Shown one piece after another: positions 12,771-43,044 of a DNA stretch of 64,000 nt. The DNA lies in contig JAUWMI010000004.1 in assembly GCA_030613245.1 (NCBI GenBank), positions 32,610 to 96,609 on the forward strand, given 5' to 3'. Positions within the stretch are counted from its first letter, which is position 1. Every line of letters begins with the position of its first letter. The notes under the pieces are model-generated. The model saw only the letters and a list, made by a program, of their open reading frames with translations. It did not search any database and was not told where the DNA came from. Made by a program: the position numbers and the translations under genes. The DNA comes from Candidatus Sumerlaeota bacterium (GTDB lineage Bacteria; Sumerlaeota; Sumerlaeia; MWCT01; JAUWMI01).

Positions 12771-15422
12771 CTACTTGCTCTGCTTGATTAAATCATCCAG
12801 AATCTTTACAGCTTCAAGCGGGGTAATGGTGTTAATGTCCATTCGGCGCAAGCGCTCCAGTACCGGATGGGTGAGGCCTTCAAACAGCGACAGTTGTACC
12901 ATTGGCTCCTTTGACGCCGCACCAGGCTTGCCCTTACTCCCTGCCTTCACAGTAATAGCTTTTCCGCACTCAAGATTAATAAGAAGTTCTTTTGCGCGAT
13001 TAATAGCCTCCATGGGAACGCCAGCCAGCGTGGCCGCGTAAATACCGTAGGAGCGATCCGTACTGCCCGGAACGATCTTATAAAGAAACACGATGCGCTC
13101 TTTTTCTTCCAGCACCGCAACGTTATAGTTTTTCACGCGCGGTAATGCTTTCTCAAGATCCGTCAGCTCGTGATAATGCGTCGCAAACAAAGTCTTTGGC
13201 ATACAGCCCTTGGTCTCGTGTAAATATTCAATCACCGCCCAGGCAATGCTCAGACCATCGTATGTGCTTGTTCCTCGACCTATCTCATCCAGGATCACCA
13301 AACTCTTGCTGGTGGTATTGTTCAGAATGTTTGCGGTTTCGTTCATTTCAACCAGAAACGTGCTCTGGCCTTTAATCAGGTAGTCCATCGCGCCAACCCG
13401 GGTAAAGATACGATCAACCAGGCAAATTGATGCTGATTTTGCAGGAACAAACGAACCTATATGCGCCATTAATGTAATCAAGGCAACCTGGCGAATATAG
13501 GTTGACTTCCCCGCCATATTCGGACCTGTGATCAGCAGAATTTGATGCTCGCGATTATCGAGACATGCATCGTTCGGCACAAACGGTTGATCCAGCTGCA
13601 TCGCCTCCAGCACCGGGTGTCTGCCCTCCGTAATATGAATTTTATCCGATTCGTTAATCTGCGGTTTCGTATAGTGGCCCGTAATAGCTGCTTGCGTCAG
13701 GGAATGAATGCAATCGAGGATCGCCACGATCCGGCCAATCTGCTGAATCTGCCGTGTGTGTCGCGCAACCTCGTCACGAAGCTTCTCAAACAGTTGATAC
13801 TCGCGGTCGTTGATTTTTTCTTCAGCATTGAGGATGATGTCTTCCTTTTCCTTCAAATCTGGCGTAATAAAACGCTCTGCATTCACGAGGGTTTGCTTGC
13901 GAATATACTCTGGCGGCAGCTCTGGCAGATTCCTGAGATTCGCATTTGTGATTTCAATGTAATAGCCAAAAACCTTGTTGAAGCCGATTTTCAAATTCTT
14001 AATTCCGGTTCGTGCAATTTCCGTCTTGCGCAACCGATTGATCCAGCCCTTGCTATCGCGCGTAATGGCGCGAAGGTCATCGAGATCCGAGTCGTAGTGA
14101 TCCTTTATCAGTCCACCTTCACGGAGTGATAGGGGAGGGTTATCAACAATCGCACGCGCCAGGTGGTCTCGTAAGTCCGGCAAAGGATCAATCTCTTGGA
14201 GCAGGCGTGTGAAAAGAGGACTGACGCACTCTTGAAGCAGCGCCAGCAGTGTGGGGATGCGCTCGAGCGACTGCTTCAGCGATTGCAGGTCCCGAGCATT
14301 CGCCGTACGGCAGCCCACGCGGCTGATAATGCGCTCCAGATCATAAATCCCCTTTAATTGTTCAACCAAAGCACGATGGCGTGAACTGTTGACGTACAAT
14401 TCTTCAATTGCATCCAACCTCTCCTCGATTTCCACCTTGTTTTTCAACGGTTGCAAAATCCATTGCCTCAGCAAACGCCCACCCATTGCTGTTAATGTAT
14501 AATCCAGAATACTGAGCACTGTTCCCTCTGTACCAGCGCTTTGCAGGTTGCGCACCAGCTCGAGGCTTCGCTGGGTAGTATGGTCAAGAATCATAAAATC
14601 AGAAGTTGAATAGACCTTCAGGGAATTAATGTGGCCGACCACGGTTTTCTGTGTCTCGCGCAGGTAACTAATGATGGCACCCGCTGCGGAAATCGCAGGC
14701 TCATACTGATCCGCGCCAAATCCTTCCAGGCCCTGAACCTCCAGCTGCTCAAGCACAAGTGCCCGGCTTGAGACATAGCGGAAGTAGTCATCCGATAGCT
14801 TCGTGATGGTCATTCGGAGCGAGGAATCAATATGCTGAAATGCAATGGACTCGAATTTTTCTGGAACCAGCAACTCTGCAGGATGCAAACGACAAATCTC
14901 GGAAAACAACTCATCCTGCGCGCGATGTCCCGAAAATTCCGTGATTCCAAAATCTCCAGTCGAGAGATCCACTACAGCCATGCCCCAGCGCTTCTTACTC
15001 TGGTAAAGCGCAAGAAGAAAATTGTTCGTCTTCTCCTCCAGGATAGACTCTTCCACCACCGTGCCCGGCGTGACAACACGGATCACCTCACGCTTGACAA
15101 TGCCCTTGGCCTGCTTGGGATCCTCGACCTGCTCGCAGATCGCGACTTTGTAGCCCGCTTTGATCAGTTTCGCCAGATAGCCATCAATGCTGTGGTAAGG
15201 AACACCAGCCAGTGGAATTGCCCGATTCTTGCCAAGACTTTTCCGCGTCAGCGCAATGTTGAGCACATGGGACGCTATCTTCGCGTCCTCATTGAACATT
15301 TCGTAAAAATCACCCAGACGAAACATCAGAATATAGGCGGGGTATTGGGCCTTGATCTGATTATATTGTCTAAGAAGTGGAGTCGCCAGCTCAGTCATGA
15401 ATACGTCCTCATTGTTGATCAA
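12771..15422 (-). CDS. mutS: DNA mismatch repair protein MutS
   Basis: The N-terminal mismatch-binding motif GDFYEMF, the Walker A ITGPNMAGKSTYIRQ, and the 883-aa length. Confidence 0.95.
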   Translation of the reverse strand: MINNEDVFMTELATPLLRQYNQIKAQYPAYILMFRLGDFYEMFNEDAKIASHVLNIALTRKSLGKNRAIPLAGVPYHSIDGYLAKLIKAGYKVAICEQVEDPKQAKGIVKREVIRVVTPGTVVEESILEEKTNNFLLALYQSKKRWGMAVVDLSTGDFGITEFSGHRAQDELFSEICRLHPAELLVPEKFESIAFQHIDSSLRMTITKLSDDYFRYVSSRALVLEQLEVQGLEGFGADQYEPAISAAGAIISYLRETQKTVVGHINSLKVYSTSDFMILDHTTQRSLELVRNLQSAGTEGTVLSILDYTLTAMGGRLLRQWILQPLKNKVEIEERLDAIEELYVNSSRHRALVEQLKGIYDLERIISRVGCRTANARDLQSLKQSLERIPTLLALLQECVSPLFTRLLQEIDPLPDLRDHLARAIVDNPPLSLREGGLIKDHYDSDLDDLRAITRDSKGWINRLRKTEIARTGIKNLKIGFNKVFGYYIEITNANLRNLPELPPEYIRKQTLVNAERFITPDLKEKEDIILNAEEKINDREYQLFEKLRDEVARHTRQIQQIGRIVAILDCIHSLTQAAITGHYTKPQINESDKIHITEGRHPVLEAMQLDQPFVPNDACLDNREHQILLITGPNMAGKSTYIRQVALITLMAHIGSFVPAKSASICLVDRIFTRVGAMDYLIKGQSTFLVEMNETANILNNTTSKSLVILDEIGRGTSTYDGLSIAWAVIEYLHETKGCMPKTLFATHYHELTDLEKALPRVKNYNVAVLEEKERIVFLYKIVPGSTDRSYGIYAATLAGVPMEAINRAKELLINLECGKAITVKAGSKGKPGAASKEPMVQLSLFEGLTHPVLERLRRMDINTITPLEAVKILDDLIKQSK

Positions 15423-15651
15423 ACATGCTGATGCCCTATATTCGGAGAAGAATTCTGCGTTGTCTTCTACCGAATCTCAAGACAAAATACAAGGAGATTA
15501 TGCCACTGCGACTGAATTCGCAACATGTAATCAAAAACGCGCAATTTGCTTGAATTTCGTCACCCGTTAGGACACGTATACTAAGCAATAGCTCTCAGTG
15601 CAGATCTGGCATGTTTTAGCGGGCTAGCCGATATAGCACGCACGAAGCCGT

Positions 15652-22139: not shown

Positions 22140-22762
22140 GATTAACTCGGTACGAGTACAAATTGCATTGTGAGGAGCCGTGGGTTTACTGACGTGTCCT
22201 CCCCTTGGCACACCTAAAATCTGGGGTTTTCAGTAATCGAGGGCAGCACTGAGTGAAAACAAGCTGCTCATGCAGAGCCGATTATGGGTCGGAGTCCACG
22301 GTTTCTCATCTCTTTTTAGAAAATGTGAGGTACTTCAGGTAAAATGCTGTCTCTTACGATTTCAACAAAGTTGCATACAAGGGGATGTTTTTTCTTAAAG
22401 GAGCGACAACTCCTAAAATTTATGGGACATATCCTAACCGATTGAAATGGTCTTTTCTTATTCTATTCTGAGGACGATTTAGTCTCATTGATGTTATTTA
22501 ACAAGCAAGTTATGCATTGTTGGCCAAAAGAGATTTCGAAAAGGCGGAGCGTTTAGTTAATCACTGCAATGTGTGGAAGGAATGGCTGCTGATGAAGAAT
22601 GAGCTATTTTTATTATACCAAGTATACTTAGTTCCGTGGGAAAACGTCGATAAATTACCAAATCTTAATGCGAGAATTTAATGAAAATCAAAGGTTGCAT
22701 TAAAAAAGTGCATTTTTTTCTTGACACGGCGAAATTGCCTGTGATAGCGGAAACCATACTTG

Positions 22763-22789
22763 CTATACCATGTAATAGATTTGGTATAG
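22763..22789. promoter_or_regulatory. Inverted repeat CTATACCA-N11-TGGTATAG upstream of the HTH-PilZ gene, with a TTGACA at 22721
   Basis: Perfect 8-bp arms lying in the long leader of the regulator gene; a candidate operator. Confidence 0.3.
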
Positions 22790-22977
22790 TAAAACGTGCG
22801 CCCTCACGTCCGTTCCTGCTCCAACTACAGAAGAACATTAAAGCTGAAAGATCCCCTTACGACCCAGCAGGCAACCTACTCAGCAGCTACAGAAAACCAG
22901 GGGTGCTGGAGAGGTATACGCATTTTTCTGTCTTACGTAAATTACTACATCCTATCAACCGGCGGGTCAGGGGAGAT

Positions 22978-23532
22978 ATGAAAACTTATTCAACCTTAGA
23001 AGCAGCCAAGAGAATTGGCGTTAGTAAATCAACATTGTTCGCTTGGTTTAAACATGGTAAAGTAAAAGACGTTGCGCGTGATCACCGTGGCTGGCGAATT
23101 TTCACCAGGGAGGATATACATCGGCTCATTGAATTCCGGCGCAATCGTCGAGCTATGCCTCAGAGCGCAGCTGGAATAGAACGGAGGCATTTTACGCGAG
23201 CGAAAGCCGCCATCCCAATCGTCTATGCACTTCGTGAAAGCCCAAAGCGGTCTGGGAAAGAGAAAATCGAAACAGTTACCGTGAATGTGAGTGGTGGTGG
23301 CTTCATGATAGAACAAAACAAGCCTCTCCAGACCGATGGCTTCCTTGATATTAAGTTCAATTTGCCTTCCCCTGCAAAGAAAGTCAAAGCAATTGGGCAA
23401 ATAAGATGGGTACGGGAAGTTAAGAAAGATCAAGAATCTACTTTTCTTCTCGGGTGTTGGTTCAGGTCAATAAACCCACATCAAAGAAAGCAGGTGATAG
23501 ATTACATTTTTGGATCAAAACCAAAAACATAA
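22978..23532 (+). CDS. Excisionase/MerR-type HTH DNA-binding domain fused to a PilZ (c-di-GMP-binding) domain
   Basis: GGGGAG lies 6 nt before the ATG. The N-terminal STLEAAKRIGVSKSTLFAWFKHGKV matches the Xis-family HTH. The PilZ motifs are RHFTR (RxxxR) and NVSGGG (D/NxSxGG), 27 aa apart. The upstream part of the 283-aa ORF (22681-22977) is probably leader, not coding. Confidence 0.7.
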   Translation: MKTYSTLEAAKRIGVSKSTLFAWFKHGKVKDVARDHRGWRIFTREDIHRLIEFRRNRRAMPQSAAGIERRHFTRAKAAIPIVYALRESPKRSGKEKIETVTVNVSGGGFMIEQNKPLQTDGFLDIKFNLPSPAKKVKAIGQIRWVREVKKDQESTFLLGCWFRSINPHQRKQVIDYIFGSKPKT

Positions 23533-23815
23533 GTATGTACCAAATTCGTTATCCACTTGTAGATGATGGCTGTTGCGCCTCTGATGTTACTCTTCTGTTC
23601 CTCTTCTCGCTGAATATCTTTTCTGACTATACTCTCCTGATGCCCAGATCCGTGTTCTTAACACAGTAGCCTGTTGAATTAGTTGTTGCTTAACCAGGTG
23701 TTTGCCTGCTGCCCTGACGGGCTGCCAAAAGTTACCTGCGAAAAGTTATCTGCAGACACCATGTAAGTTCATTTTGGTTCTGGTTTTACCAAAGGCAAAA
23801 TCGCTGGAGGATTTA

Positions 23816-24529
23816 ATGGAAAACATCTCAAGAGTTTTTCGTACGGTTGCCCTGATTGCCAGTGCTCTGTGCCTCTTACTCCTTGTTGCATGTGCTGCCA
23901 CATTGAGTTTACCAACCATGCCTCTGGATACCAGTATAAGGGGTGTGACTATCCCACAAGAGGTGCGACTTGCGCCAGGAGACGAGATTGAAATCAAGTT
24001 CTATTATACGCCGGACCTGAACGAGAGCCTGACCATTCGGCCAGATGGGAAAATTACCCTCCAGATGGTTGATGACGTCGAGGTAAAGGGTCTCACTCCA
24101 GACGAACTCAGAGTCGAGCTTGAAAGGCTATATACGCCATACATTAAGGAACCTGCTGTCAGCGTGATAGTGCGCACACTTGCCAGCCAGCAAATTTTTG
24201 TTGGCGGGGAGGTGCGCACGCCCGGAGCACTCCCTCTAAACGGTAACACTACGTTGCTCCAGGCTATTATACAGGCTGGTGGATTTATCAAAGTGAGTGC
24301 GAAATTATCGAATGTTATCGTAATGCGCCAGGACGAAGGAAAGTGGTACGGAGGAGCTTTTGACCTAAGAAAGGTGGTTAAAGGCAAGGAAAGCGATTCG
24401 TTTTACCTTAAGCCTATGGATATTGTTTACGTGCCGCGCACCAGAATTAACAAGCTTAACCAGTGGGTTGATCAGTATATCACGAGGATGATTCCAGGGA
24501 TGGGCAGCATTACAGCTTTTGCTCCGTAG
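23816..24529 (+). CDS. Polysaccharide export outer-membrane lipoprotein (Wza/EpsA-like, Poly_export + SLBB)
   Basis: Lipobox LLVAC. The Poly_export motif is PGDEIEIKFYYTPDLNESLTIRPDGKITLQMVDDVEVKGLTPDEL. Confidence 0.8.
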   Translation: MENISRVFRTVALIASALCLLLLVACAATLSLPTMPLDTSIRGVTIPQEVRLAPGDEIEIKFYYTPDLNESLTIRPDGKITLQMVDDVEVKGLTPDELRVELERLYTPYIKEPAVSVIVRTLASQQIFVGGEVRTPGALPLNGNTTLLQAIIQAGGFIKVSAKLSNVIVMRQDEGKWYGGAFDLRKVVKGKESDSFYLKPMDIVYVPRTRINKLNQWVDQYITRMIPGMGSITAFAP

Positions 24530-24567: not shown

Positions 24568-26172
24568 ATGGAGCCGATGGAATTAAAATCAAACGTTCCA
24601 GTGCATGGGAATCCGTATTTACGGAATATCTCAGAAATTCCCGAACAGTCGCGCCGTGACTTCTTTCGCATCATATTTCGGCAAAAATGGAAGATCTTGC
24701 TCTGCTTTGTCTTTGTAGTGGGTGCTGCAGCATTCATGGCTTCTCGTACATCAAAGACTTATGAATCGCAAGCAAAGATAATGGTTCGGATGGGACGTGA
24801 GATGCTTTCCGATGACCCGGTGATTCGTAGCGGAGAAGAACGCGGGACTACCAGCAGCCGGGATCAGATGGAATCTGAAATTACAATTCTGAAAAGTAGT
24901 ATCGTTGCCGCGCAGACAGTTGATGAGATTGGAGTAGAAGCCTTTCTTGCGAACGCAAAGGGACAGCCTGCAAAACTTCCTCGCACGCAAATTGCTGAAC
25001 TGGAAACCCTTTCTGAAATTGCGCCTCGCGAGAGAGTTATCAACAGGGTGATGAATAATCTCACTGTGAAAAACAGGGGAAGCATTATTTCAGTAGGTTT
25101 TACCGCAACGGATCCCTATCTCGCGCAACGTGTACTTGACACACTTTTGCGTGTCTATATAAAGCGCCATATTGCTGTGTTTCGGTTAGAAGTTTCCTCG
25201 CAGTTCTTTAGCGAACGCAGCGCTGCTCTTGCAGCTCAGCTCGCACGTAGTCAATCTGAATTCGAAGAATTCTGTAAAACGCATGGCATAATTAACATTG
25301 AAGAGCAAAAAAGCGGGCTGCTGGCTCAGGTGGATGATTTACATGCCCGCCTCTATGATATGAACGCGGAAATCAGTGGATCCCTTGCCATGATCTCCTC
25401 ATTCAAGAATGAGTTAGAAAACCCTGCAGAACGGAATTCCGAAGCTTCAACAGCGGTTCCTGGTGAGCTGGCAAGAATACTGAACACAAGGTTACTTGAG
25501 CTAATGTTCAAGCAAGCGGAGATTTCTCCAAAATATCCGGAAGATTCAAAGGAGATGCGCGATATCAGGCAACAAATCGAAGTTACACGATCATTAATCG
25601 CAACGGAGAATGAAAATGAATCTGGAGCACTTACAGGGATTGATACGGATAAGGCGGCGCTTGAAAGTGCAATGAAAAGCGAGCAAGCCCATCTGGCGTC
25701 ACTCAGGGCGAGGAAGAAATCCTTGGCTGGGGAGCTGGCGAAACGAGAAAAGGCCCTCAACGAACTTTCACCACTTGAGGGAAAGATTGCAAAGATGAGG
25801 CGTAATATCAGCCTGAGCGAACAGGAATACCTGAATTACCGTAATAACCTGCAGGCTACTGAAATCTCGGCCGCTCTGGACAGTGCACATGTTTCTAATG
25901 TTAAAATCTTACAGCCCGCTACTCTGCCAGTGACACCAGTCAAGCCAAGGAAAACGCGTATGATTGCTATCGGATTATTCATCGCATTTTTCGGAAGTAT
26001 AGGTTTTGCCTTTGTTATAGAGTATTTTGATCACTCCTTTAAAACGAATGAAGAAGTTGAACGTCGTTTGGGACTGCCCGTTCTGGCCACTATCCCGAAG
26101 GTGAGGAAACGGGAGTTATTATTAGCCACAGGCCAGCCCGGGAGAAACGAGAGGTTATTGTCTCATGAATAA
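24568..26172 (+). CDS. Polysaccharide chain-length determinant (PCP/Wzz-GumC family)
   Basis: TM helices at both ends with a long coiled-coil periplasmic region. The Wzz-type N-terminal motif is VKNRGSIISVGFTATDPYLAQRVLDTLLRVY. Confidence 0.8.
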   Translation: MEPMELKSNVPVHGNPYLRNISEIPEQSRRDFFRIIFRQKWKILLCFVFVVGAAAFMASRTSKTYESQAKIMVRMGREMLSDDPVIRSGEERGTTSSRDQMESEITILKSSIVAAQTVDEIGVEAFLANAKGQPAKLPRTQIAELETLSEIAPRERVINRVMNNLTVKNRGSIISVGFTATDPYLAQRVLDTLLRVYIKRHIAVFRLEVSSQFFSERSAALAAQLARSQSEFEEFCKTHGIINIEEQKSGLLAQVDDLHARLYDMNAEISGSLAMISSFKNELENPAERNSEASTAVPGELARILNTRLLELMFKQAEISPKYPEDSKEMRDIRQQIEVTRSLIATENENESGALTGIDTDKAALESAMKSEQAHLASLRARKKSLAGELAKREKALNELSPLEGKIAKMRRNISLSEQEYLNYRNNLQATEISAALDSAHVSNVKILQPATLPVTPVKPRKTRMIAIGLFIAFFGSIGFAFVIEYFDHSFKTNEEVERRLGLPVLATIPKVRKRELLLATGQPGRNERLLSHE

Positions 26173-26857
26173 CAAAATGATTACCAATAAGGTGGGGGAG
26201 GGAATCGTTATCAGCTGGAAGATCCCCAACCGAATGGAAGAACAGTGCGGCGCGCTAAAGCATGCAGTCATGGCTTCCATGGATGGCAGAGCCTACGTGC
26301 CATCTGTCCTGGCATTCACCAGCTGCCATGCAGGCGAGGGGGTCACAACGGTAGCAACAAGTTTTGCTCTAACGATTGCTGAGGATCGCGAACGATTTGT
26401 TCTACTGGTTGATTGCAATATTAAGGACCCCTGGTTGCACACACTTTTACAAGCACAGAGAGCTCCAGGATTGGTTGAGGCTCTTACAACAGAGTCTGAT
26501 CTTCCGTGGCCAGTACATCGCATTGGCCAGAGACTTGATGTCCTTTTTGCAGGAAAGGAGACGTTGAAGCCCTGGCGTGTTTTCGGCGGTGGCGAGTTTA
26601 GCAATTTTTTGCGAGAGGCCAAAAGAAACTACGACATGGTAATCCTTGACTGTCCGCCCGTGATTGACTCTGCCGGCTCGCTAGTATTGGCGACAAAAGC
26701 AGATGCCATTGTTTTGGTGCTAGAAGCTGAACGTACTCGGCGTGAAGTTGTACAACGCGCTCAAAGGGCAATTATGAGTTCCGGTGCTAAAATACTCGGA
26801 GTCGTTCTGAATAAAAAGCGCTACCATATTCCCAAGGTGCTGTACAAACATCTTTGA
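26165..26857 (+). CDS. BY-kinase-like P-loop ATPase (CpsD/CapB/EpsB-type) with a non-canonical Walker A (GEGVTT, Lys replaced by Val)
   Basis: Walker A' is VLLVDCNIKDP and Walker B is MVILDCPPV. The short C-terminus has only two Tyr. It overlaps the PCP stop. Confidence 0.65.
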   Translation: MNNKMITNKVGEGIVISWKIPNRMEEQCGALKHAVMASMDGRAYVPSVLAFTSCHAGEGVTTVATSFALTIAEDRERFVLLVDCNIKDPWLHTLLQAQRAPGLVEALTTESDLPWPVHRIGQRLDVLFAGKETLKPWRVFGGGEFSNFLREAKRNYDMVILDCPPVIDSAGSLVLATKADAIVLVLEAERTRREVVQRAQRAIMSSGAKILGVVLNKKRYHIPKVLYKHL

Positions 26858-26885: not shown

Positions 26886-28238
26886 GTGAAAGGAAGAAGA
26901 CGCGTGCCATCGAGAATTCTCCGCTGGCTAATATCTGGCTCAGGAAAGCGCACAGGCATCCGCTCTGAGATTCCAGATCTCTGGAGTGCTGAGGCTTTTA
27001 ATGAGCAGCTGAAAAAGGAGAAGCTGCGTGCTGAACGGAGCAACTCGCCCTTCGTGCTTCTTGTGTTTGATGTGCGCTGCACGTCGGGGAAAAGAGACGA
27101 CTGTATCCGGAGCTTAACTTATCTGGCTAAACTGATACAAGAATGCACCAGGGCCAGCGATACGCGGGGCTGGTATCGTGAAGATGGCAAAGAAAGGGTT
27201 GGGATTATTTTGCCAGATACGTTTCGAAAAGGTGCGCTCCAGGTTGTTGAAAAAGTTGAAGCGTCTTTTAAAAGGCATTTATTGAAGGTACACAGTGGAG
27301 ACGGAGATTCGATGTGGCTGGTTTACAAGATGTATTGGTACCCTGGCAACCATAATTCTTCCGATCGAGATGATTCCCGTCTTGGTGTAAATCGGGCCCA
27401 AAGTAACGAAAACCGACCTGGGGACTCAGAGACACAGGACGCCGACTCTCAAACATCCCGCCAAACAATGGTACCCTATAATATAGAGAGTTGCTCGTTT
27501 ACAACTTCTCTTAATACAGAACAACTTCACAATGAGGTTCAAATCGTTCACCCGGGAAAATTGTTTCAGCTACTCGCATACCATCTTCCCAGATGGAAGC
27601 GCACGGTAGACATAGTAGGAGCTTCGTTAGGACTGGTCGTACTTTCTCCCATCATGTTCTTAGTTGCGCTATTGATCAAAATGACTTCCCGAGGGCCGAT
27701 TTTTTTCAGGCAAGAGAGAGTCGGCTACCTGGGTAAACAGTTCCAATTCCTGAAATTTCGCTCAATGCGAACGCACGCTGACGAATCAATCCATCAAAAA
27801 CATCTCAAGGAACTGATATGCAACGGCAACGGCAATGGCAACGGATCCGATAAGCCGATGACAAAAATTCGTAACGATCCGCGGGTTACAAAATTGGGGC
27901 GATTGCTTCGTGCATGGTGTCTTGATGAATTACCGCAATTGATACACGTGTTGAGAGGAGAAATGTCATTAATCGGTCCCAGGCCACCCATTCAATACGA
28001 GGTGGAAGATTATCAGGATTGGCACAAGCAACGCCTAAATATAGTTCCGGGAATTACTGGACTTTGGCAGGTTAACGGCAAGAACGCCATGACATTCGAC
28101 GAAATGGTTCGTGTGGACCTTCGATATATGAAGAATCTCTCCTTTTGGACAGATATAAAGATTTTGGCGAAGACCATTCCCACGGTACTTCGTATTGGGA
28201 TTGGCGCGAAATCTACGGCGAGTTGCCAGGAAGGATGA
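26886..28238 (+). CDS. Priming polyprenyl-phosphate phosphoglycosyltransferase (WbaP/PglC 'bacterial sugar transferase' family) with an N-terminal roughly 210-aa degenerate GGDEF-like domain
   Basis: The C-terminal catalytic domain reads ...FRSMR...DPRVTKLGRLLRAWCLDELPQL...IGPRP...VPGITGLWQVNG. The N-terminus aligns to the GGDEF fold (FNEQL..PFVLLVFDV..RASD-TRGWY-REDGKE-RVGIILPDT). A single re-entrant/TM helix lies between the domains. Confidence 0.8.
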   Translation: MKGRRRVPSRILRWLISGSGKRTGIRSEIPDLWSAEAFNEQLKKEKLRAERSNSPFVLLVFDVRCTSGKRDDCIRSLTYLAKLIQECTRASDTRGWYREDGKERVGIILPDTFRKGALQVVEKVEASFKRHLLKVHSGDGDSMWLVYKMYWYPGNHNSSDRDDSRLGVNRAQSNENRPGDSETQDADSQTSRQTMVPYNIESCSFTTSLNTEQLHNEVQIVHPGKLFQLLAYHLPRWKRTVDIVGASLGLVVLSPIMFLVALLIKMTSRGPIFFRQERVGYLGKQFQFLKFRSMRTHADESIHQKHLKELICNGNGNGNGSDKPMTKIRNDPRVTKLGRLLRAWCLDELPQLIHVLRGEMSLIGPRPPIQYEVEDYQDWHKQRLNIVPGITGLWQVNGKNAMTFDEMVRVDLRYMKNLSFWTDIKILAKTIPTVLRIGIGAKSTASCQEG

Positions 28239-29640: not shown

Positions 29641-30720
29641 ATGAAAATAAGTTTCGTTTTGCCAGGCAGAGCACGATCTGGTGGCGTGCTCTGTACGGTT
29701 CATTGTGCAAATGGTCTCCTTAAGCGAGGCCATAGTGTTCGTATTCTTTATAAAGGGCCTTATATCCGCAGGTTAGTCCGAAAGACATGGATCTCGGCTA
29801 GGTATGGGCCGAATGCCGACGGCCTGCAGCGTTACAGAGGTGCACGTTCACCATACAAATCCATAACAAACTGTGCTTTCGATAAAGATGAGCTGGTAGT
29901 AGCAACAGGGCCTCATTGTGCACTGGAGGTCGCTAAGTTAGCTTCGGGTCAAGGAATTAAGGTCCAGTATGTGCGCGGCATCACGCTTCCTAACAAGGAA
30001 GACATGTACCGTGCTTGGAGGCTGGACATTCCGATAATTGTTGTGGCCTCGTATTTGGTGGAGGAGATTCGGAACAAGGTCGGCAAGGATGTTGTTGGAA
30101 TTGTTCGGGATGGAGTCAGCACCGAGGATTATTATCCTTGCGATGAAGAATCTAAGCGCACAGGGATCGGAACTAGTTTTGGGGTTGGGCCTGCGAAGGA
30201 CCCAAAAACAATTTTAGCTGTTCTCAGCTCACTAAAGCAGCAATTTCCGAATGTAGCTAAGCACGTTTATGGCTCATGCCCTCGACCAAAGAAGGTTGAT
30301 CGAAAGTCCTTTGTGAGATTCCCCTCCATATCTCAAGCGCGATCGATGTATTCAAAATCGCTAGTTTGGTTTTGCGCAAGTCGCTCGGAAGGCTTCGGCC
30401 AGCCAATTTTAGAGGCTATGGCCTGCGGATGTGCCGTTGTCAGTACAGATTGCGGCGGGCCGCGCGATATTATTAGACACGGCGAAAACGGATTTTTAGT
30501 CGAAGTTGGAAACGTAGAACAAGTTGCCAAATACATTGCTCTGCTTTTGAAAAATAATGATTTGCGTATAAGAATAAGCAAGGAAGCGCAGCTCACCGCA
30601 AAGCAATTTACATGGCATAGAACTATTGACCTGTTGGAAGCGTACTTATTACGGATTCTTGATGAAGCCAAAGGATCGCATTCGGACCAAGGAATCCTAG
30701 AGAAAGTGACTGCCCAATAG
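29641..30720 (+). CDS. Glycosyltransferase family 4
   Basis: The C-terminal SEGFGQPILEAMACGCAVVSTDCGG matches the GT4 signature. Confidence 0.75.
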   Translation: MKISFVLPGRARSGGVLCTVHCANGLLKRGHSVRILYKGPYIRRLVRKTWISARYGPNADGLQRYRGARSPYKSITNCAFDKDELVVATGPHCALEVAKLASGQGIKVQYVRGITLPNKEDMYRAWRLDIPIIVVASYLVEEIRNKVGKDVVGIVRDGVSTEDYYPCDEESKRTGIGTSFGVGPAKDPKTILAVLSSLKQQFPNVAKHVYGSCPRPKKVDRKSFVRFPSISQARSMYSKSLVWFCASRSEGFGQPILEAMACGCAVVSTDCGGPRDIIRHGENGFLVEVGNVEQVAKYIALLLKNNDLRIRISKEAQLTAKQFTWHRTIDLLEAYLLRILDEAKGSHSDQGILEKVTAQ

Positions 30721-30807
30721 CAATAGGGACGACTTTTTAGTGGAATGAGGATGCATAAGAAAAGCCAGACGTGAGGGTAAGTTTGATTTTCCAGCACTTG
30801 CGGGACT

Positions 30808-32130
30808 ATGATTAGGCAAGAGACACAGATAAAGGTTTGCTTACTTGGCGTTTCATTTGAAACGGGGAATATGGGGGTACATGCGCTTACTCATGCTACC
30901 ATAAAATGCATCCTCGCGCAATTGGCCGACGCCCAAATTACAATCCTGGACTACGCACATCAGCCAAAGGAATACAATCTGAGGATTGGCGATAAGAAAA
31001 CCACCGTACGCATGGTGAATATGAGATTTTCTAAAAAGTTTTATCTTAAGAATAATGTTGCCGTGCTTTTCTTACTTTCGTGCATTCTGAAACTAATCCC
31101 GATTCCATTTGTCAGAAGGCGCATAATCGAGAACAACGCTTGCCTAAGGACATTAGTGAACGCCGATATTGTGGCAGACATCAGCGGGGGAGATAGCTTT
31201 ACAGATATGTACGGCTTACGCAGAGTCTTTTATATATGCCTTCCCAAAATACTGGTTATCATGCTGAAAAAAGATCTCATTCTCCTGCCGCAAACTATCG
31301 GACCCTTTAAAAGTATCCTGGCAAAAGCTATTGCCAGATATATTCTGAACCGTGCCAGTATAATCTATTCCAGAGACCGTATTGGTCTGAGCGAATATGT
31401 AAGCTCTCTGAAAATGAATGCTGTAAACGGAAAGGCTAGGTTTTGCTACGACGTAGGTTTTGTGCTTGAGCCAGCAAAGCCCAATAAGATTGAGATTAGT
31501 TCTCTTCTCAATACAGGCAACAGCAGGTATATGGTGGTTGGGCTTAACATCAGTGGCCTACTTTATAACGGCGGCAGAACCCGCAACAATATGTTTGGAT
31601 TAAAAGTCGATTACCAACAGCTAATTCTTAAAGTTATAACTTTACAGATGCAGCACGAGAACGCAATCGTCCTGCTTGTACCACACGCTTTCCACCCGCC
31701 TGAGCATTTTGAAAGCGACCAGGGTGTATGTGCCCAGGTTTATGATTTGCTTAGAGAGAGGTATGGAAACCGGATCAAGCTCGTTCCGGGAACTTATGAC
31801 CAAAGCGAGATTAAATATATTATTGGGATGTGTGATTTTTTTGTTGGCTCACGGATGCATGCGTGCATCGCGGCACTTTCGCAGAGCATTCCCACAGTGG
31901 CTATTGCGTATAGCAAAAAATTCAAGGGTGTTATGGACTCAATTGGAGTTGGAAATCTTGTAGCAGACCCTCGGGAAATGGAAGAGCAGGAAATACTCGG
32001 TGTAATTAATAAAGCATACGCGGAAAGAGACATCATTAGCAATCATTTAGAGCGGACCATGCCTGATGTGAAGAAGCGCGTGCTGAATCTTTTTGCAGAG
32101 ATCCAAGAGTTCAGTATGAAGCGGCAATGA
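30808..32130 (+). CDS. Polysaccharide pyruvyl transferase (CsaB/WcaK family)
   Basis: GGDSFTDMYG and the C-terminal SRMHACIAALSQSIPTVAIAYSKKFKGV are typical of the PS_pyruv_trans family. Confidence 0.8.
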   Translation: MIRQETQIKVCLLGVSFETGNMGVHALTHATIKCILAQLADAQITILDYAHQPKEYNLRIGDKKTTVRMVNMRFSKKFYLKNNVAVLFLLSCILKLIPIPFVRRRIIENNACLRTLVNADIVADISGGDSFTDMYGLRRVFYICLPKILVIMLKKDLILLPQTIGPFKSILAKAIARYILNRASIIYSRDRIGLSEYVSSLKMNAVNGKARFCYDVGFVLEPAKPNKIEISSLLNTGNSRYMVVGLNISGLLYNGGRTRNNMFGLKVDYQQLILKVITLQMQHENAIVLLVPHAFHPPEHFESDQGVCAQVYDLLRERYGNRIKLVPGTYDQSEIKYIIGMCDFFVGSRMHACIAALSQSIPTVAIAYSKKFKGVMDSIGVGNLVADPREMEEQEILGVINKAYAERDIISNHLERTMPDVKKRVLNLFAEIQEFSMKRQ

Positions 32131-33305
32131 AGATAACCGATCAAAATATCAGTTTGATTGTCAAGAAGCGCATTTGCTGCGGCTGTGGCGGTTGCACCGT
32201 CATCTGTCCGCAGGCATGTATAGAAATGATCAGTGGCCGGCACTTCAACTATCCTCAAGTTCAGGTTGACGGATGTATAAAGTGTGGAAAATGCATTCAG
32301 GTATGTCCGAGCACGCACTTGCTGGAAAACCTAGATGAGAAACTGTATGTGTCGCATTTAAATGAGGCCTATAACTACTGGATTGCTCATGCTAATGACG
32401 ATGCAATACGGACAGAAGGAGCTTCAGGAGGATTTGTTTCGGCGTTCTTGATCTATCTGCTGCGCGCGCAAGAGATAGACGGAGCTGTAGTAGCATGCGG
32501 AGATGATTCCGATCCGCTTTTGAACCGGTCGTTTCTTGCTACTGATGAGAAAGGGATTCTGGCGGCGTGTGGGTCCAGATATGGTCCGGTTTCAAATTGT
32601 ACGGCCCTTGAACAAATAATAAAGAAACCAGGAAACTACGCATTTGTTGGGAAGCCGTGTGAAATTCAGGCTTTGCGCAAATTGCAAGATCTTGTCCCTG
32701 AGCTGAAAAAGCGCATTCACTTATCAATAGGAATCTTTTGCGCATGCACTCCTCCGCGCAGCAACACAGCATCTTTTCTATCCCGATGGGGTGTGAGATT
32801 GCAAGACGTACGGAAGATTCAATACCGGGGGCACGGCTGGCCTGGTTTGTTCCGGGCATCGAATGGTCGCAAGATATTGCTTGAAAGGCCATACATGGAT
32901 GCCTGGCGGCACCTCGTGGCAACTAATCCATCAATCAGATGCATGCTGTGTTTCGATACATTTGCCGATGCTGCGGACGTATCGGTCGGTGATCCGTGGG
33001 GCGAAGAACTCATTGCCTCGGAACAAAGAGGACTATCACTGGTTGTGGTAAGAAGTAAACGAGCGAAGGATAACATTCGATCTGCAGAAAAGTCCGGCGC
33101 TATCAGCCTTATAGAAACCACACGAGCCGACGTACTCACATGTCAGAAGGCGCTTGTGGGTAAGGTCCAAAAAGCAAGGGCAAAAGTTCTTGTTTATCAG
33201 ATCATCTCTCAGAAGCGGGTGCAAGAACCACTAACGCTATGGAAAAATAGATTTTCGATGGCAAGGTCACTGTTGAGACAATATGCGAAGCGCCATTACT
33301 ATTGA
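32127..33305 (+). CDS. FrhB/FdhB-like (coenzyme F420 hydrogenase beta subunit-like) protein with two N-terminal 4Fe-4S ferredoxin motifs
   Basis: CCGCGGCTVICP and CIKCGKCIQVCP. It overlaps the pyruvyl-transferase stop; these two families are well known to pair in EPS loci. Confidence 0.7.
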   Translation: MKITDQNISLIVKKRICCGCGGCTVICPQACIEMISGRHFNYPQVQVDGCIKCGKCIQVCPSTHLLENLDEKLYVSHLNEAYNYWIAHANDDAIRTEGASGGFVSAFLIYLLRAQEIDGAVVACGDDSDPLLNRSFLATDEKGILAACGSRYGPVSNCTALEQIIKKPGNYAFVGKPCEIQALRKLQDLVPELKKRIHLSIGIFCACTPPRSNTASFLSRWGVRLQDVRKIQYRGHGWPGLFRASNGRKILLERPYMDAWRHLVATNPSIRCMLCFDTFADAADVSVGDPWGEELIASEQRGLSLVVVRSKRAKDNIRSAEKSGAISLIETTRADVLTCQKALVGKVQKARAKVLVYQIISQKRVQEPLTLWKNRFSMARSLLRQYAKRHYY

Positions 33306-33396
33306 TGTGCGCACTGAATTGGATTATGTATCCATTACAATAATAGAACTTGGGCATGTGCAGGGAGTTTGCGCTGAAGGAGAATAAAAAGAAACC

Positions 33397-34764
33397 ATGG
33401 AGCCAGTAACATTATTAATAGCCGCAATAGGCTCTTTGGCTGTGTTCTCCGTTCGTCCAATTATGGGGATTATTTTTTATGTAGCGGTCCTTGCGTGGTA
33501 TCCTTCGTATTTAACATTGAAGGTAGGTACGCTTGATTTTTCTGCAAGCCGTATAGTAATTCTAGCACTCTACGCCAGTATTTTGTTCCGAACCAAACTT
33601 GCGCAGCAATTTAAATGGTGCTGGCTCGACCGGCTCCTTATCATTGCACTCCTTGGCACCGTTATATCTGGTATGATGAACGAGCCATTCTGGAAAATAG
33701 TAGAAAACCGCAGTGGAACAGCCTTCAACACATTACTCCCGTATTTTGCGGTGCGGATGATTGTAACTTCTCGAGAGAAATTCCTGACGGTTCTGAAAGG
33801 CTTTTTAGTTATCGGAACCCCACTGGCTATAGTAGGTGCTTATCAGAGTCTTACCGGTCATAATCCGGTCGGATTTCTTCACCAATATGGCGCGTGGACA
33901 CCCAGAGAAGCTCATAGATATTTCAGATATGGCCTGTATCGCGCGGAGGTGACATTCTCAGTTAGCATCCTTTTTGGGCTGTTCTTTGCCATGATTGCAC
34001 CATGCTGTGCAGGCTTATGGGGACATATAAAGCACCTTCGGCTTCCCATTGCTGCTGGGATTGGATTAATGTTGATTGGCCTAGTATCATCTGCCTCCAG
34101 TGCAGCTTTCCTTGCAGGTTTAGTGGCATTGCTTTTGCTTTCAATGTTTCCAATTAGACGTTATTGGCCTGCTTTGCTTATAGTGTTGGTTGCGGGATGC
34201 ATATTTGTAGAGGTGTTCAGCAACAGGCACTTCTACTCAGTTCCGGCCAGTTTCACATTCAGTTCGGCAACTGCTTACTACCGGATTGGTCTTATAGAGG
34301 AGGCTTTCGGTGGTGGCATGACGGGTCACTGGATTGAGGGCTATGGATTGATTGGCATGCAGCCTGATCGCCTTGGTTGGGTACACTGGGATCTTACCAA
34401 TCAATACATTGGCATACTGGCTCGTTTCGGACTGCTGGGGCTTTTGCCTTTCTTGGTTGTCATAGTTGCATCGTTAATTCGGCTGCGAAGAGCCTTTGTC
34501 TTGGCTAGCCCCAACAAGGCTGATCAGTGGATGATCTGGTGCTTGCTAGCTTCAGTGGCGGGTATACTAATTGCAATGAATACTGTGTCTTTATTCGACC
34601 AATCAGGCAACTTATTCTATATCTTACTTGGTCTAAGCGGAGCTATGCCCGTGATTCTTTCATCAGTCCCCGCGAAAACAAAGCCACTAGTTGAGACATG
34701 GCGTTATAGAGTTGACTTTCCTTTTCCTGAAATGGCTGATACGAAGAATTTTCAACAAGGTTGA
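33397..34764 (+). CDS. O-antigen polymerase/ligase (Wzy-type) family membrane protein
   Basis: 455 aa with roughly 11 TM helices and a large periplasmic loop. Confidence 0.55.
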   Translation: MEPVTLLIAAIGSLAVFSVRPIMGIIFYVAVLAWYPSYLTLKVGTLDFSASRIVILALYASILFRTKLAQQFKWCWLDRLLIIALLGTVISGMMNEPFWKIVENRSGTAFNTLLPYFAVRMIVTSREKFLTVLKGFLVIGTPLAIVGAYQSLTGHNPVGFLHQYGAWTPREAHRYFRYGLYRAEVTFSVSILFGLFFAMIAPCCAGLWGHIKHLRLPIAAGIGLMLIGLVSSASSAAFLAGLVALLLLSMFPIRRYWPALLIVLVAGCIFVEVFSNRHFYSVPASFTFSSATAYYRIGLIEEAFGGGMTGHWIEGYGLIGMQPDRLGWVHWDLTNQYIGILARFGLLGLLPFLVVIVASLIRLRRAFVLASPNKADQWMIWCLLASVAGILIAMNTVSLFDQSGNLFYILLGLSGAMPVILSSVPAKTKPLVETWRYRVDFPFPEMADTKNFQQG

Positions 34765-34840
34765 TTGGCAGAACTGTGCAGATAGAGGTCCAGGCACGGC
34801 CTACCAAGGTGTTAACACCCATGACATCAGGAAGCTGAGG

Positions 34841-35788
34841 ATGGACGTATCGATTATTATAGTTAGCTGGAACACGAAGGAAATTCTGCGCAATTGTTTA
34901 CGCTCAGTCTATGAACAAGCGGGCCCTATTAGCTTCGAAGTATTCGTCGTTGATAATGCGTCCTCAGATGGATCCGCACAAATGGTGGAGAATGAGTTCC
35001 CGCAAGTATGTCTTATTCGCAATGCCGAGAATAGAGGCTTTGCAGCGGCGAATAATCAAGCAATGGCTCGTGCGATGGGAAGATACATTCTCCTGCTTAA
35101 TCCGGACACGATTGTGCTTAATGGTGCCATTGCTAAGACAGTGTCCTTTGCAGATGCACATCGTGAAGCTGGGGTGATAGGTTGCAAGATCCTTGGCAGC
35201 GATCGTACTTTGCAGCGAAGTTGTTCTACGTATCATAGCCCTTTGAACCTGTTGATATTAACGTTTGGCTTGCACCGTCTCTTTCCTCGAAGTCGCTTTT
35301 TTGGGCGCGGACGGATGACATGGTGGGATTATGGAAGCGTACGTGAGGTACAGACGGTAAGTGGTTGCTTTATGTTGGTTCGACGAGAAGCCATCAATCA
35401 AATTGGTCTTATGGATGAAAGATTTTTTATGTATACCGAAGAAATGGACTGGTGTTGGCGGATGTGGTCCAAGGGATGGAAGGTGATCTACTTTCCAAAT
35501 GCCGAGATAGTTCACCTTGGAGGATCAAGCTCTGCTTTAACCTGGGAAACTATGATATTAGAACAAAGGAGAAGTTTATTACGATTTATTGAAAAACGAC
35601 AGGGGCAATTGGCAAAGGGGGTTGCCAATGTACTGTTGCTTCTTGGGACACTCGTCAGGCTCTTGTACTGGTGGTGCTCAATCCCTCTGCGCACGCCGCA
35701 TGTGGCAAGCAAATTAAAAAAAAGAATTAAGCTGGGTCTCTTAACGGCCAAGTTCCATCTTGGCTTTGGTAGAGAATCCCCGCCATGA
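34841..35788 (+). CDS. Glycosyltransferase family 2
   Basis: MDVSIIIVSWNT...DNASSDGS...NRGFAAANN (DxD/GT-A). Confidence 0.8.
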   Translation: MDVSIIIVSWNTKEILRNCLRSVYEQAGPISFEVFVVDNASSDGSAQMVENEFPQVCLIRNAENRGFAAANNQAMARAMGRYILLLNPDTIVLNGAIAKTVSFADAHREAGVIGCKILGSDRTLQRSCSTYHSPLNLLILTFGLHRLFPRSRFFGRGRMTWWDYGSVREVQTVSGCFMLVRREAINQIGLMDERFFMYTEEMDWCWRMWSKGWKVIYFPNAEIVHLGGSSSALTWETMILEQRRSLLRFIEKRQGQLAKGVANVLLLLGTLVRLLYWWCSIPLRTPHVASKLKKRIKLGLLTAKFHLGFGRESPP

Positions 35789-35827
35789 GGTGGCGTTTCG
35801 GCCAACGATAGTTAAAGTTTTCAAAAG

Positions 35828-36793
35828 GTGATGGGCGATAGAATGAATAGGACACACTTACAACAGACTGGTTTAATAGCAGGCGAGAAGTACATAGTAA
35901 TAACTCCGGCCCGGAATGAGTCTGCCCATATCGAGAAAACAATAAAGTCTATGATCAGCCAGACTGTTCTTCCGTCCGAATGGATCATTGTGGATGATGG
36001 CTCAACGGATGGTACGCCTGAGATTGCGGAGAAATACTCCCAGCAATATGGCTGGATAAGGCTAATCAGAAATCCAGCGGACAGGAAGAAGCGAGACATT
36101 GGCGGAGGTGCTCCAGCAAAGGCTTTTAACCTTGGACTTAAACACATGAGTACTGACAACTACGAATTTCTCGTTAAGCTGGACGCAGACCTGTCGTTCG
36201 AGGCAAACTATTTTGAGCTGCTGCTCAAGCAGTTTGCCGAAGATCCCAAGCTGGGTATAGCTGGGGGGAATATCCATGAATTCAGGCATGGAGTTGCCCG
36301 GCCGCGTAAAAGCTACCTCTTACATGTTGCAGGGGCCACGAAGGTATACCGACGAGAATGTTTTCTGGATATAGACGGGCTCGTTGAAAGTGTAGGATGG
36401 GACACCATTGACGAGATTTCCGCCCGTATGAAGGGCTGGAAAACCCGAACTATTGAGAATCTGAAGATATTCCATCATAGAAGGACATTTTCGTCGGAAG
36501 GAAATATTCTTGTGGGATTTATACGCAGAGGTCGAATTGATTATCTCTTAGGTTTCCATCCCTTTTTTGAACTTCTGAAATGCTCGCACACCATGGCACG
36601 CGCCAGGCCTTACCTATTAAGCGGGCTTTTCATGGCCTATGGCTACATAAAAGCGGCATTGAAAAGAGAAAAAAGACCGGTCACTCCTGAGTTCATTAAG
36701 TATCTCAGAGGAACACAGATGCAAAGGCTGAGACGTCTATTTTCTTTCAGGAATAGTTCTGAGATGGGAATAGTTCATAAGAAAGCTAATTGA
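35828..36793 (+). CDS. Glycosyltransferase family 2
   Basis: YIVITPARNESAHIEKTI...WIIVDDGSTDGT. Confidence 0.8.
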   Translation: MMGDRMNRTHLQQTGLIAGEKYIVITPARNESAHIEKTIKSMISQTVLPSEWIIVDDGSTDGTPEIAEKYSQQYGWIRLIRNPADRKKRDIGGGAPAKAFNLGLKHMSTDNYEFLVKLDADLSFEANYFELLLKQFAEDPKLGIAGGNIHEFRHGVARPRKSYLLHVAGATKVYRRECFLDIDGLVESVGWDTIDEISARMKGWKTRTIENLKIFHHRRTFSSEGNILVGFIRRGRIDYLLGFHPFFELLKCSHTMARARPYLLSGLFMAYGYIKAALKREKRPVTPEFIKYLRGTQMQRLRRLFSFRNSSEMGIVHKKAN

Positions 36794-36952
36794 AGCGAAA
36801 AAATAGCAGCGATACCAAGGCATGAGAAGGATTAGTTCGACCTTCCAGCGCAAGATAATCCAGATTGTTTTGAACAAAAACAAGGTGTCGTGCCATTGAT
36901 TTCAAGATCATATTTTACAATTCATGCGCATACGGAGTGACAAGAGCGAACG

Positions 36953-38248
36953 ATGAACCTGGCAAGGTTTATATTTAACTCTCGGGGGATCAGTAATCTT
37001 TTGCACCGTTTTTGGAGCTTGTTTTGCCGCTTTGGCTTTACGCCGGCACGCATGGAGAAGCAGTTGCAAAAGATGACGGATATTTGCAAGGCCCACGATA
37101 TTCTGCCAACATTTCCAGCCACTGCTTGCATCTTAAGGCGGTACCCGAAGCCAATTACGAGACTGCAGGCACAGGGTGTGGAGTTTGCTGTGCATGGACT
37201 AGTGCACACGGATTACACGCAACTTCCGTTTGAGAAACAGCGAGAGCATTTTGAGCAAGCGATAGAGATTTTTGAAAAAGCCGGGATTCGCATGTGTGGG
37301 TTTCGCTCGCCTTATTTGCGCAGTAACAACGACACTCATCTAGCGGTTAGCGATTGCAATTTTGTATGGGCAAGTAATTTTGTTATCCATTGGCCAGTGG
37401 TGGAGCAGGGTGAGTTTCCTCCTCAGGCATGGGAGGCCTACCAGAAGGTTCTGGAGCTTTATAGCAGCCAGTCAGCAACACAATATCGCGTCATTCCACA
37501 CCTGCTAGACGGTCATGTGGAAATTCCGGTTTCCGTCCCAGATGACGAAGCCTGCGTGGATCGTCTGGAGCTTAAACGTGACAAGAGGCGCATCGGGCGC
37601 ATCTGGCAATCAATCTTGGAACAAAGCCATGCGCGTGGGGAAATCTTCACAGTGCAGCTCCATCACGAACGCCTGCCATTTTGCGATGAGGCGCTGGACT
37701 ATGTTTTGACAATAGCAGACCAGCTATCGCCGCCGGTTTTCAAGGGACAGCTAGCAACAATTGCTAATTGGTGGAAGCAGCGCAGGAGCTCAATCTTTCA
37801 TCTCGAGGTTGCGAGGGATAGCTACACACTCGAGCTTAAGACGCCCAAGGAAGCAACAATACTCTGCCGGGGCATGGAGGGCTCCAAAGACCACCTATTC
37901 TTTGCCAACTATACTCTGACAAGCAAACGGGTCTTCTCTGGTAGAGGGATTCTACCAGGAGTTGCGCTTAGTAGCCAGTGCCATCCGAGCTGGCGAGATT
38001 TTTTACAGGAAGAAGGATTCCTCACATTGGATCCGATGCACTGCGCTCGAGCTGCGTATGTGGTGGAGGAACCCAATATGCTAACCGAGGAAGGTGCTTT
38101 TAATGTACTTCAGGCAATAGACTCTGCGGATACTCCTATGGTGAGGCTTTGGCGATGGCCGCAAGGCTGCCGGAGCGCCCTATGTGTAAGTGGTGATATT
38201 GATTGTATGACGCTCCAGGATTTCTTATGGCGAATTTGGGAGGTATGA
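36953..38248 (+). CDS. Polysaccharide-deacetylase-like (NodB-related) family protein, putative
   Basis: It has a HGLVHTDY H-x-x-x-H-like motif, but the TFDDG motif is not evident, so the call is tentative. Confidence 0.4.
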   Translation: MNLARFIFNSRGISNLLHRFWSLFCRFGFTPARMEKQLQKMTDICKAHDILPTFPATACILRRYPKPITRLQAQGVEFAVHGLVHTDYTQLPFEKQREHFEQAIEIFEKAGIRMCGFRSPYLRSNNDTHLAVSDCNFVWASNFVIHWPVVEQGEFPPQAWEAYQKVLELYSSQSATQYRVIPHLLDGHVEIPVSVPDDEACVDRLELKRDKRRIGRIWQSILEQSHARGEIFTVQLHHERLPFCDEALDYVLTIADQLSPPVFKGQLATIANWWKQRRSSIFHLEVARDSYTLELKTPKEATILCRGMEGSKDHLFFANYTLTSKRVFSGRGILPGVALSSQCHPSWRDFLQEEGFLTLDPMHCARAAYVVEEPNMLTEEGAFNVLQAIDSADTPMVRLWRWPQGCRSALCVSGDIDCMTLQDFLWRIWEV

Positions 38249-43030: not shown

Positions 43031-43044
43031 TCCGGTAACCCGCC

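Follow-up and report, generated by a model that had tools for sequence, protein, structure and literature searches.

A probable PslE-type BY pseudokinase as separately encoded cytoplasmic module of a split PCP-2 in an exopolysaccharide locus of Candidatus Sumerlaeota

Introduction

What becomes of a bacterial tyrosine (BY) kinase-like protein once the invariant lysine of its Walker A motif has been lost? This question is raised by an exopolysaccharide (EPS) locus on a stretch of 64,000 nucleotides from a Candidatus Sumerlaeota bacterium (NCBI GenBank assembly GCA_030613245.1, contig JAUWMI010000004.1, positions 32,610 to 96,609 of the forward strand; hereafter the window, in which all positions below are numbered). 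One open reading frame (ORF) of this locus (26165..26857, + strand) encodes a stand-alone BY-kinase-like protein of 230 amino acids with valine at the lysine position, and the gene directly upstream encodes a polysaccharide co-polymerase (PCP) of the PCP-2 type. A preliminary description of the locus, made from the sequence alone, had proposed for this protein either a pseudo-kinase/scaffold role or a non-canonical mode of nucleotide binding. The first proposal is supported by our analysis: the protein combines a predicted BY-kinase fold with the loss of the Walker A lysine, of the second Walker A′ aspartate and of the tyrosine cluster; it has no tyrosine-rich tail, a PCP-2 without kinase domain is encoded alongside it, and it falls in a clade that includes PslE, which also reads GEGVT. 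We consider it probable that the protein is a PslE-type BY pseudokinase which, in a Wzx/Wzy-type EPS locus, supplies the cytoplasmic module of a PCP-2 split over two genes and serves as a phosphorylation-independent scaffold.

Motifs and fold of the pseudokinase

The degenerate Walker A motif SCHAGEGVTT (residues 53-62; 26321..26350, +) reads AGEGVTT where the canonical form is GxxGxGK[ST]. As the preliminary description had stated, the catalytic lysine is replaced by valine; it is residue 60, encoded by GTC at 26342-26344 within SCHAGEGVTTVA. That description also held that all other P-loop features are present. This is true of the Walker B motif MVILDCPP (residues 158-165; 26636..26659, +; hhhhDxxP is matched by MVILDCPPV, residues 158-166), whose D162 is invariant in the 139 representatives described below, and the quoted string VLLVDCNIKDP does occur as residues 79-89, but the Walker A′ motif itself is altered. 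Aligned to CapB, with the CapB residues taken from PMC2422856, the Walker A′-like strand VLLVDCNIK (residues 79-87; 26399..26425, +) reads D83-C-N85-I-K87 (DxNxK) instead of the canonical DxDxR (CapB D77/D79/R81). Asn85 thus replaces the second aspartate (CapB D79), a change that had been overlooked. By the same alignment, the ring-interface motif ExxRxxR of helix alpha2 is E26-x-x-G29-x-x-K32, and these positions vary across the clade. The motif TRREV (residues 191-195; 26735..26749, +), which is typical of the clade, comes after the strand that follows Walker B. In place of a tyrosine cluster, the protein has a conserved C-terminal tail, NKKRYHIPKVLYKHL (residues 216-230; 26810..26854, +). 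The C-terminus, KKRYHIPKVLYKHL, holds two tyrosines in a fixed and conserved motif, the number given before: the last 11 residues, YHIPKVLYKHL, contain exactly Y220 and Y227, and the chain stops three residues past Y227. Judged from the alignment, the lysine is therefore not the sole changed residue, and other catalytic and interface positions are altered too.

Val60 is retained in orthologs at 97, 87 and 84% identity, and GEGVTT is also present in Candidatus Sumerlaeota contigs from metagenome-assembled genomes (MAGs) in GTDB at 99% (CAYVXD010000009.1, amino-acid identity) and 95%. Compared with the syntenic ortholog at 84% (locus L001), the gene shows 105 synonymous and 36 non-synonymous codon differences, and GTC is unchanged in that ortholog, with synonymous changes on both sides of it. 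The pattern of these codon differences indicates that the pseudokinase gene is under purifying selection.

The best NCBIfam matches of the protein are TIGR03018 (XrtA-associated tyrosine autokinase; 100.4 bits against a cut-off of 230.65), TIGR01007 (polysaccharide biosynthesis tyrosine autokinase; 97.1 bits against 108.05) and TIGR03029. All of them score under the curated cut-offs, and membership in these three families was rejected. Sequence matches in the PDB are to the kinase domains of VpsO, CapB, Wzc, Etk and BceF. An AlphaFold2 monomer model, built from an alignment of 23 sequences, has a predicted local distance difference test score (pLDDT) of 78.9 and a predicted template modelling score of 0.82; the P-loop region reaches a pLDDT of about 90, and the model is poorly defined only at the first 13 and the last 12 residues, with the tail below 50. 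When the model was compared with the PDB using Foldseek, the kinase domains of VpsO, Wzc and CapB came first (E about 1e-16, template modelling scores of about 0.75-0.8). The sequence matches, the model and the Foldseek ranking all argue that the pseudokinase has a BY-kinase fold (P-loop NTPase, MinD-like).

A multi-phylum clade with a conserved tail

A profile of lysine-less homologs, searched against 1.84 billion representative proteins, matched 22,047 proteins, canonical kinases among them, at E <= 1e-30. The shared tail ends 139 of the best 148 new representatives, and canonical kinases from the same search end in clusters of the YYYY or YGYGY type. Among the 139 tail-bearing representatives, to which the residue tallies refer (numbered as in the pseudokinase), the lysine is missing from 135; position 60 is V in 51, T in 31, A in 25, C in 12, S in 10, K in 4 and N in 4. 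G59, S/T61, D162 and P223 are each found in all 139, N216 and Y227 each in 138, and D83 in 135. At Walker A′ position 85, N is found in 114 and D in 21, and position 87 is R in 83. Residue 192 is R in 115 and K in 15, and residue 194 is E in 97 and Q in 28. Most of the representatives (103/139) are stand-alone proteins, and 31 are the C-terminal domains of PCP proteins.

Similarly, a scan of one genome per GTDB species gave 211 confirmed relatives, 80 of which were kept as loci. These come from, among others, Desulfobacterota, Gemmatimonadota, Eisenbacteria, Latescibacterota, Krumholzibacteriia, NC10, Nitrospirota, Acidobacteriota, Planctomycetota, Verrucomicrobiota, Binatia and Pseudomonadota. 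Together with 8 metagenome or NCBI contigs they make up loci L001-L088, with 89 homologous ORFs, 86 of which lack the lysine (T36, V23, A16, G6, K3, S2, C2, N1 in that column). A re-rooted neighbor-joining tree of the domain, from which the tail was left out, places 23 canonical kinases (K, DxD, no tail) in a clade of 26 leaves with only one tail-bearing protein. The tree is crude, lacks support values and samples few canonical kinases, and midpoint rooting is uninformative on monophyly.

By these tallies, the pseudokinase belongs to a large clade of many phyla with the same substitutions and a fixed tail. Its sequence signature comprises GEG[VTACS][ST]T, a Walker A′ DxN, an intact Walker B, TR(R/W)E and, instead of the tyrosine cluster, the terminal tail N-[KR]-R-[KR]-[YF]-x-[IV]-P-x-x-[LI]-Y-[KR]-x-L. 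The missing lysine is the normal and known state of a widespread family and not as an oddity of the source genome. None of the curated NCBIfam models captures the family members, and public names such as "protein-tyrosine kinase" and "CpsD/CapB family tyrosine-protein kinase" are misleading for them.

Comparison with PslE, EcpK/HfsB and canonical BY-kinases

A phosphorylation-independent PCP-2 with a BY pseudokinase has already been published, for EcpK and HfsB in 2025 and with the structure of PslE in 2026. The sequence definition of the clade given here links stand-alone and fused forms to PslE. In Pseudomonas aeruginosa PslE, solved by cryo-electron microscopy, the kinase-like domain has neither the catalytic lysine nor the tyrosine cluster (PMC13434223). 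Its tail (residues 645-662, with one tyrosine) lies at the interface of the inner membrane and the cytoplasm by transmembrane helix 2 of the adjacent protomer, and Y658C cross-links to S2C of PslJ, the Wzy polymerase (PMC13434223). Without residues 644-662, no Psl is produced and PslJ is bound less well, and disulfide-locked PslE octamers stay fully functional, indicating that a cycle of assembly and disassembly is not required (PMC13434223).

PslE (PDB 9v75, 9v6l) is the best PDB match of the C-terminal 54 residues of the pseudokinase (E = 2e-4). For the full-length pseudokinase the match has an E value of about 4e-8, and the similarity is low and local. The link is closer in a fused family member, P0128, for which PslE is the top PDB match over the whole length (E = 5.6e-37); in that alignment PslE shows the P-loop TSARHGEGVTF, the Walker B motif VVLLDAP and the tail start IINRRRFEVPSKV. 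The tail starts of the two proteins align, NKKRYHIPKV in the pseudokinase with NRRRFEVPSK in PslE. Both carry the same valine at the Walker A lysine position (GEGVT), both keep a Walker B hhhhDxP and lack a tyrosine cluster, and the PslE tail opens with the same motif, N-R-R-R-[FY]-x-[VI]-P, and has a single tyrosine near its end. PslE works with an outer-membrane polysaccharide export (OPX) protein and a Wzy polymerase, as the pseudokinase probably does. They differ in that the PCP and the kinase-like domain are fused in one chain in PslE, whereas here the latter is encoded by a separate, translationally coupled gene. The kinase-like domain of PslE is also shorter (485-642): its Walker B follows the P-loop helix after only about 20 residues, and the Walker A′ region, kept by the pseudokinase, is thus missing from it.

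The stand-alone arrangement has its counterpart in the BY pseudokinases EcpK of Myxococcus xanthus and HfsB of Caulobacter crescentus, which have a BY-kinase fold and no catalytic motifs (PMC12004946). They bind the kinase-less PCP-2 partners EpsV and HfsA and are needed for EPS or holdfast synthesis, and their proposed action is independent of phosphorylation and runs via the cytoplasmic C-terminal peptide of the PCP (PMC12004946). The same study proposed a third, phosphorylation-independent PCP-2 subfamily, called widespread with reference to Cuthbertson et al. 2009, and cited Syntrophus aciditrophicus SYN_00779/00780 for it (PMC12004946). In our GTDB genome scan, Syntrophaceae MAGs carry members of the family studied here. 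Like EcpK and HfsB, the pseudokinase is a stand-alone protein of BY-kinase fold paired with a kinase-less PCP-2. Unlike EcpK, which has no Walker A, A′ or B motif and ends in a Lys/Arg helix without tyrosine (PMC12004946), it keeps all the nucleotide-binding residues except the lysine and the second A′ aspartate and has a tail with proline and tyrosine. This distinction from EcpK and HfsB is drawn from the published descriptions and not from a sequence comparison.

With the canonical proteins CapB, VpsO and Wzc, the pseudokinase shares the fold, the CapA/CapB-like gene arrangement and a PCP with a CapA-like activator peptide. It differs from them in lacking the catalytic lysine and the tyrosine cluster and in having DxN and ExxGxxK. 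The CapB mutant K55M has no activity, still carries ADP-Mg from the expression host and assembles into the ring (PMC2422856), and several Wzc K540M entries among the Foldseek matches are titled with MgADP. The natural K to V change mimics these laboratory K to M mutants, which are inactive and keep both ADP-Mg and the ring state. In contrast to Escherichia coli Wzc K540M, which does not support capsule synthesis, the pseudokinase family is evidently functional as it stands.

The PCP partner

The preliminary description had placed a separate PCP partner directly upstream, and this is confirmed by its domain matches: the gene at 24568..26172 (+) encodes a PCP-2 of 534 amino acids with Wzz and GNVR domains and no kinase domain. 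The end of this gene, with its stop codon, overlaps the start of the pseudokinase gene by 8 nucleotides (ATGAATAA), which suggests translational coupling. A cytoplasmic juxtamembrane segment of the PCP, YFDHSFKTNEEVERRLGLPVLATIPKVR (26023..26106, +), is similar to the CapA activator peptide and gives a short, weak match (E = 0.06) to the C-terminal CapA1 fragment of CapAB chimeras. In 72 of the 80 GTDB loci, the homolog has a PCP gene within 6 kb on its own strand, either next to it (31 loci), fused with it (6) or with one or more genes in between (35). The order OPX-PCP-pseudokinase, with or without a gene for a priming glycosyl transferase (PGT) or Wzy, is found in L001-L008.

A proposed model without phosphorylation

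By analogy with PslE, EcpK and HfsB, the pseudokinase would dock under the PCP octamer via the C-terminal juxtamembrane peptide of the PCP and would form a cytoplasmic ring without autophosphorylation, and its short basic and aromatic tail would reach the interface of membrane and cytoplasm. There, contacts of the tail with an adjacent transmembrane helix and with the Wzy polymerase would hold the latter stably in the PCP cage. With docking, ring and tail-polymerase contact of this kind, polymerisation and export could run without a kinase/phosphatase cycle of assembly and disassembly. A candidate for the contact of the tail, again by analogy, is the product of 33397..34764 (+), a probable Wzy-type polymerase. 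Its Wzy_C match is weak and below the gathering score (E = 0.0048), and it is 63% identical to the syntenic L001 gene with a recorded Wzy_C match. The essential invariance of the Mg-binding S/T61, D83 and D162 and of the base-contacting N216 suggests, in addition, that the pocket probably still holds a nucleotide as a structural ligand, without turnover, and is not an empty relic. This raises the question of whether ATP is a structural cofactor of the pseudokinases of this clade.

Several points weigh against this scaffold model or limit it. That the protein cannot phosphorylate is read from its motifs and from the comparison with PslE, and the match to PslE spans just the P-loop and residues 582-651. 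As a relative, PslE is distant and more strongly reduced; its tail past residue 651, including Y658, did not align to that of the pseudokinase, so the correspondence of Y227 to PslE Y658 is one of analogy and not of alignment. No nucleotide has been reported for PslE (PMC13434223), which leaves nucleotide binding to be argued from conservation, and the adenine-stacking F221 of CapA corresponds to valine in the PCP of the pseudokinase. Moreover, the lysine is kept in a minority of relatives (P0050, P0146, P0156 and P0169 among the representatives; L057, L068 and L083 among the loci) that fit the family profile and have the proximal tail (YxIP) or more of it in common. P0050 keeps both the lysine and DxD, and its nearest neighbours by distance are the pseudokinase's own subclade. 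The clade is thus not uniformly dead, and these sequences imply either repeated loss of the lysine or its occasional retention inside the clade.

Phosphatases and other kinases also bear on the model. In the six-frame ORFs of the window, which were searched with the family hidden Markov model and with regular-expression motifs for low-molecular-weight protein tyrosine phosphatases (LMW-PTP) and HCX5R, the family model found no second BY-kinase homolog, the other Walker A matches lying in two long ORFs (12774-15476 and 59400-60821, minus strand) outside the family-library scans. No LMW-PTP/HCX5R phosphatase motif was found in the window, PHP-type (CpsB) phosphatases not having been specifically searched, and none was found within 6 kb of the homolog in the 80 GTDB loci. 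A single LMW-PTP-like match in the window, in an ORF of 61 amino acids, was taken as spurious. On the other side, other parts of the genome could hold genes for phosphatases or kinases, and a gene of L005 (5715-6353, -) matches the Pfam families Y_phosphatase2, DSPc and PTP-like. It lies 2.4 kb downstream of the lysine-less homolog P0007 (GEGVSS) on the opposite strand, and it could be a coincidence or a hint of a lasting tie to phosphotyrosine in some members.

Alternative explanations

The main alternative to the proposed nucleotide ligand is a pure scaffold with an empty, vestigial pocket as in EcpK and HfsB, in which the P-loop residues are kept for folding only. EcpK and HfsB do act as scaffolds without any Walker motif (PMC12004946), and the silence about nucleotide in PslE (PMC13434223) and the valine at the CapA F221 position would both fit such a pocket. 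Against it, the ligand-contacting residues are 97-100% conserved across phyla at sites whose surroundings vary freely, which folding alone hardly explains. The EcpK fold tolerates the complete loss of the motifs. The lysine-less CapB and Wzc mutants, for their part, retain ADP-Mg (PMC2422856; PDB titles). We regard the empty scaffold as rather unlikely, although it deserves more weight than the other alternatives.

Instead of being a passive ligand, the nucleotide might be what the clade works with. The proteins could form an ATP-locked switch, in which occupancy and not hydrolysis sets ring assembly and tail release, or a "with-no-lysine" BY-kinase acting on Tyr227 via R192 or the K/R run after N216. 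If so, the nearly perfect conservation of S/T61, D83, D162 and N216 in many phyla would reflect a working nucleotide site in proteins that are named kinases in databases and pseudokinases in recent papers. Such a nucleotide-dependent device seems unlikely to us.

An outright active kinase or ATPase of a non-canonical kind would transfer phosphate to Tyr227 or Tyr220 with the help of a relocated basic residue, as in "with-no-lysine" kinases; this residue might be R192/R193 of TRREV, K217/K218/R219 beside the base-binding Asn or one contributed by the PCP peptide. The other nucleotide and Mg ligands (G59, S/T61, D83, D162 and N216) are indeed invariant, the distance of the invariant Tyr227 from the C-terminus is fixed, position 192 is R or K in 130 of 139, a few members of the clade keep the lysine, and there is the phosphatase-like gene near the homolog of L005. 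However, most of the clade has lost two catalytic residues together (K to V/T/A/C/S and DxD to DxN). The replacements of the lysine are small or hydrophobic and variable, which looks like relaxed identity and not like a new catalytic residue. There is also no tyrosine cluster, and no phosphatase motif was seen in the window or in the 80 loci. In the known systems, K55M and K540M abolish activity in CapB and Wzc (PMC2422856), and in PslE the tail tyrosine contacts the polymerase and the locked ring works (PMC13434223). An active enzyme of this sort is thus unlikely.

Finally, a single codon change could stem from error and the sequence is that of a MAG, but a sequencing or assembly error, against which the preliminary description had called for a check, and likewise a decaying pseudogene of a formerly active kinase, are excluded with next to no residual chance by the same valine codon in independent assemblies at 99, 97, 95, 87 and 84% identity, by codon differences that point to strong purifying selection, by the intact reading frame of a translationally coupled gene and by the loss of the lysine throughout the clade.

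Other genes of the locus

The order MerR-PilZ / OPX / PCP / pseudokinase / PGT is shared by L001-L003. In the window, the OPX gene (23702..24529, +) encodes a Wza-like outer-membrane export protein with Poly_export and SLBB domains, whose best NCBIfam match, TIGR03027, is below the cut-off. The PGT gene (26886..28238, +) encodes a priming polyprenyl-phosphate sugar transferase (Bac_transf, 221 bits). Near its N-terminus (residues ~32-136), this transferase also has a degenerate GGDEF domain (PF00990; 25.6 bits, the gathering score being 23.8). Orthologs with identities as low as 29% all keep the RxxD I-site (R89, D92) and the GWY after it, and have (R/H/C)(E/D)(D/G)(G/A) in place of GG(D/E)EF. 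From these residues, the first enzyme of the pathway looks to be fused to a receptor domain for cyclic di-GMP (c-di-GMP). The EPS locus opens with a gene for a fusion of a MerR-type helix-turn-helix domain with PilZ (22681-23532, +), which is kept in L001 and L002. The MerR-PilZ protein and the GGDEF-like domain suggest that c-di-GMP, and not tyrosine phosphorylation, controls the locus; if regulation is not by phosphorylation, control by c-di-GMP may take its place.

Between the PCP and the pseudokinase gene of L004 there is a gene for an ExeA-like ATPase with AAA_16/AAA_22 matches (9141-10004, +). An arrangement of PCP, AAA ATPase and kinase-like protein is known from XrtA/PEP-CTERM EPS loci. 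No exosortase was seen among the ORFs scanned in the window.

Downstream of the pseudokinase gene, a long co-directional EPS cluster extends over 29641-47132 (+). It encodes GT1 and GT2 glycosyltransferases, a pyruvyl transferase adjoining an Fe-S protein like FrhB/F420-dehydrogenase beta, two polysaccharide deacetylases, a FemAB/GNAT-like protein, a hexapeptide acyltransferase, a DegT aminotransferase, an ATP-grasp-like protein and a methyltransferase. Among the ORFs scanned in the window, none has a Pfam match to a Wzx flippase. The GC content of the window is 47.5%. Just past the EPS cluster, a protein of 1215 amino acids (47359-51006, -) has beta-helix/NosD, fn3 and Laminin_G_3 domains, and by this domain content it may be secreted and glycan-binding or glycan-degrading.

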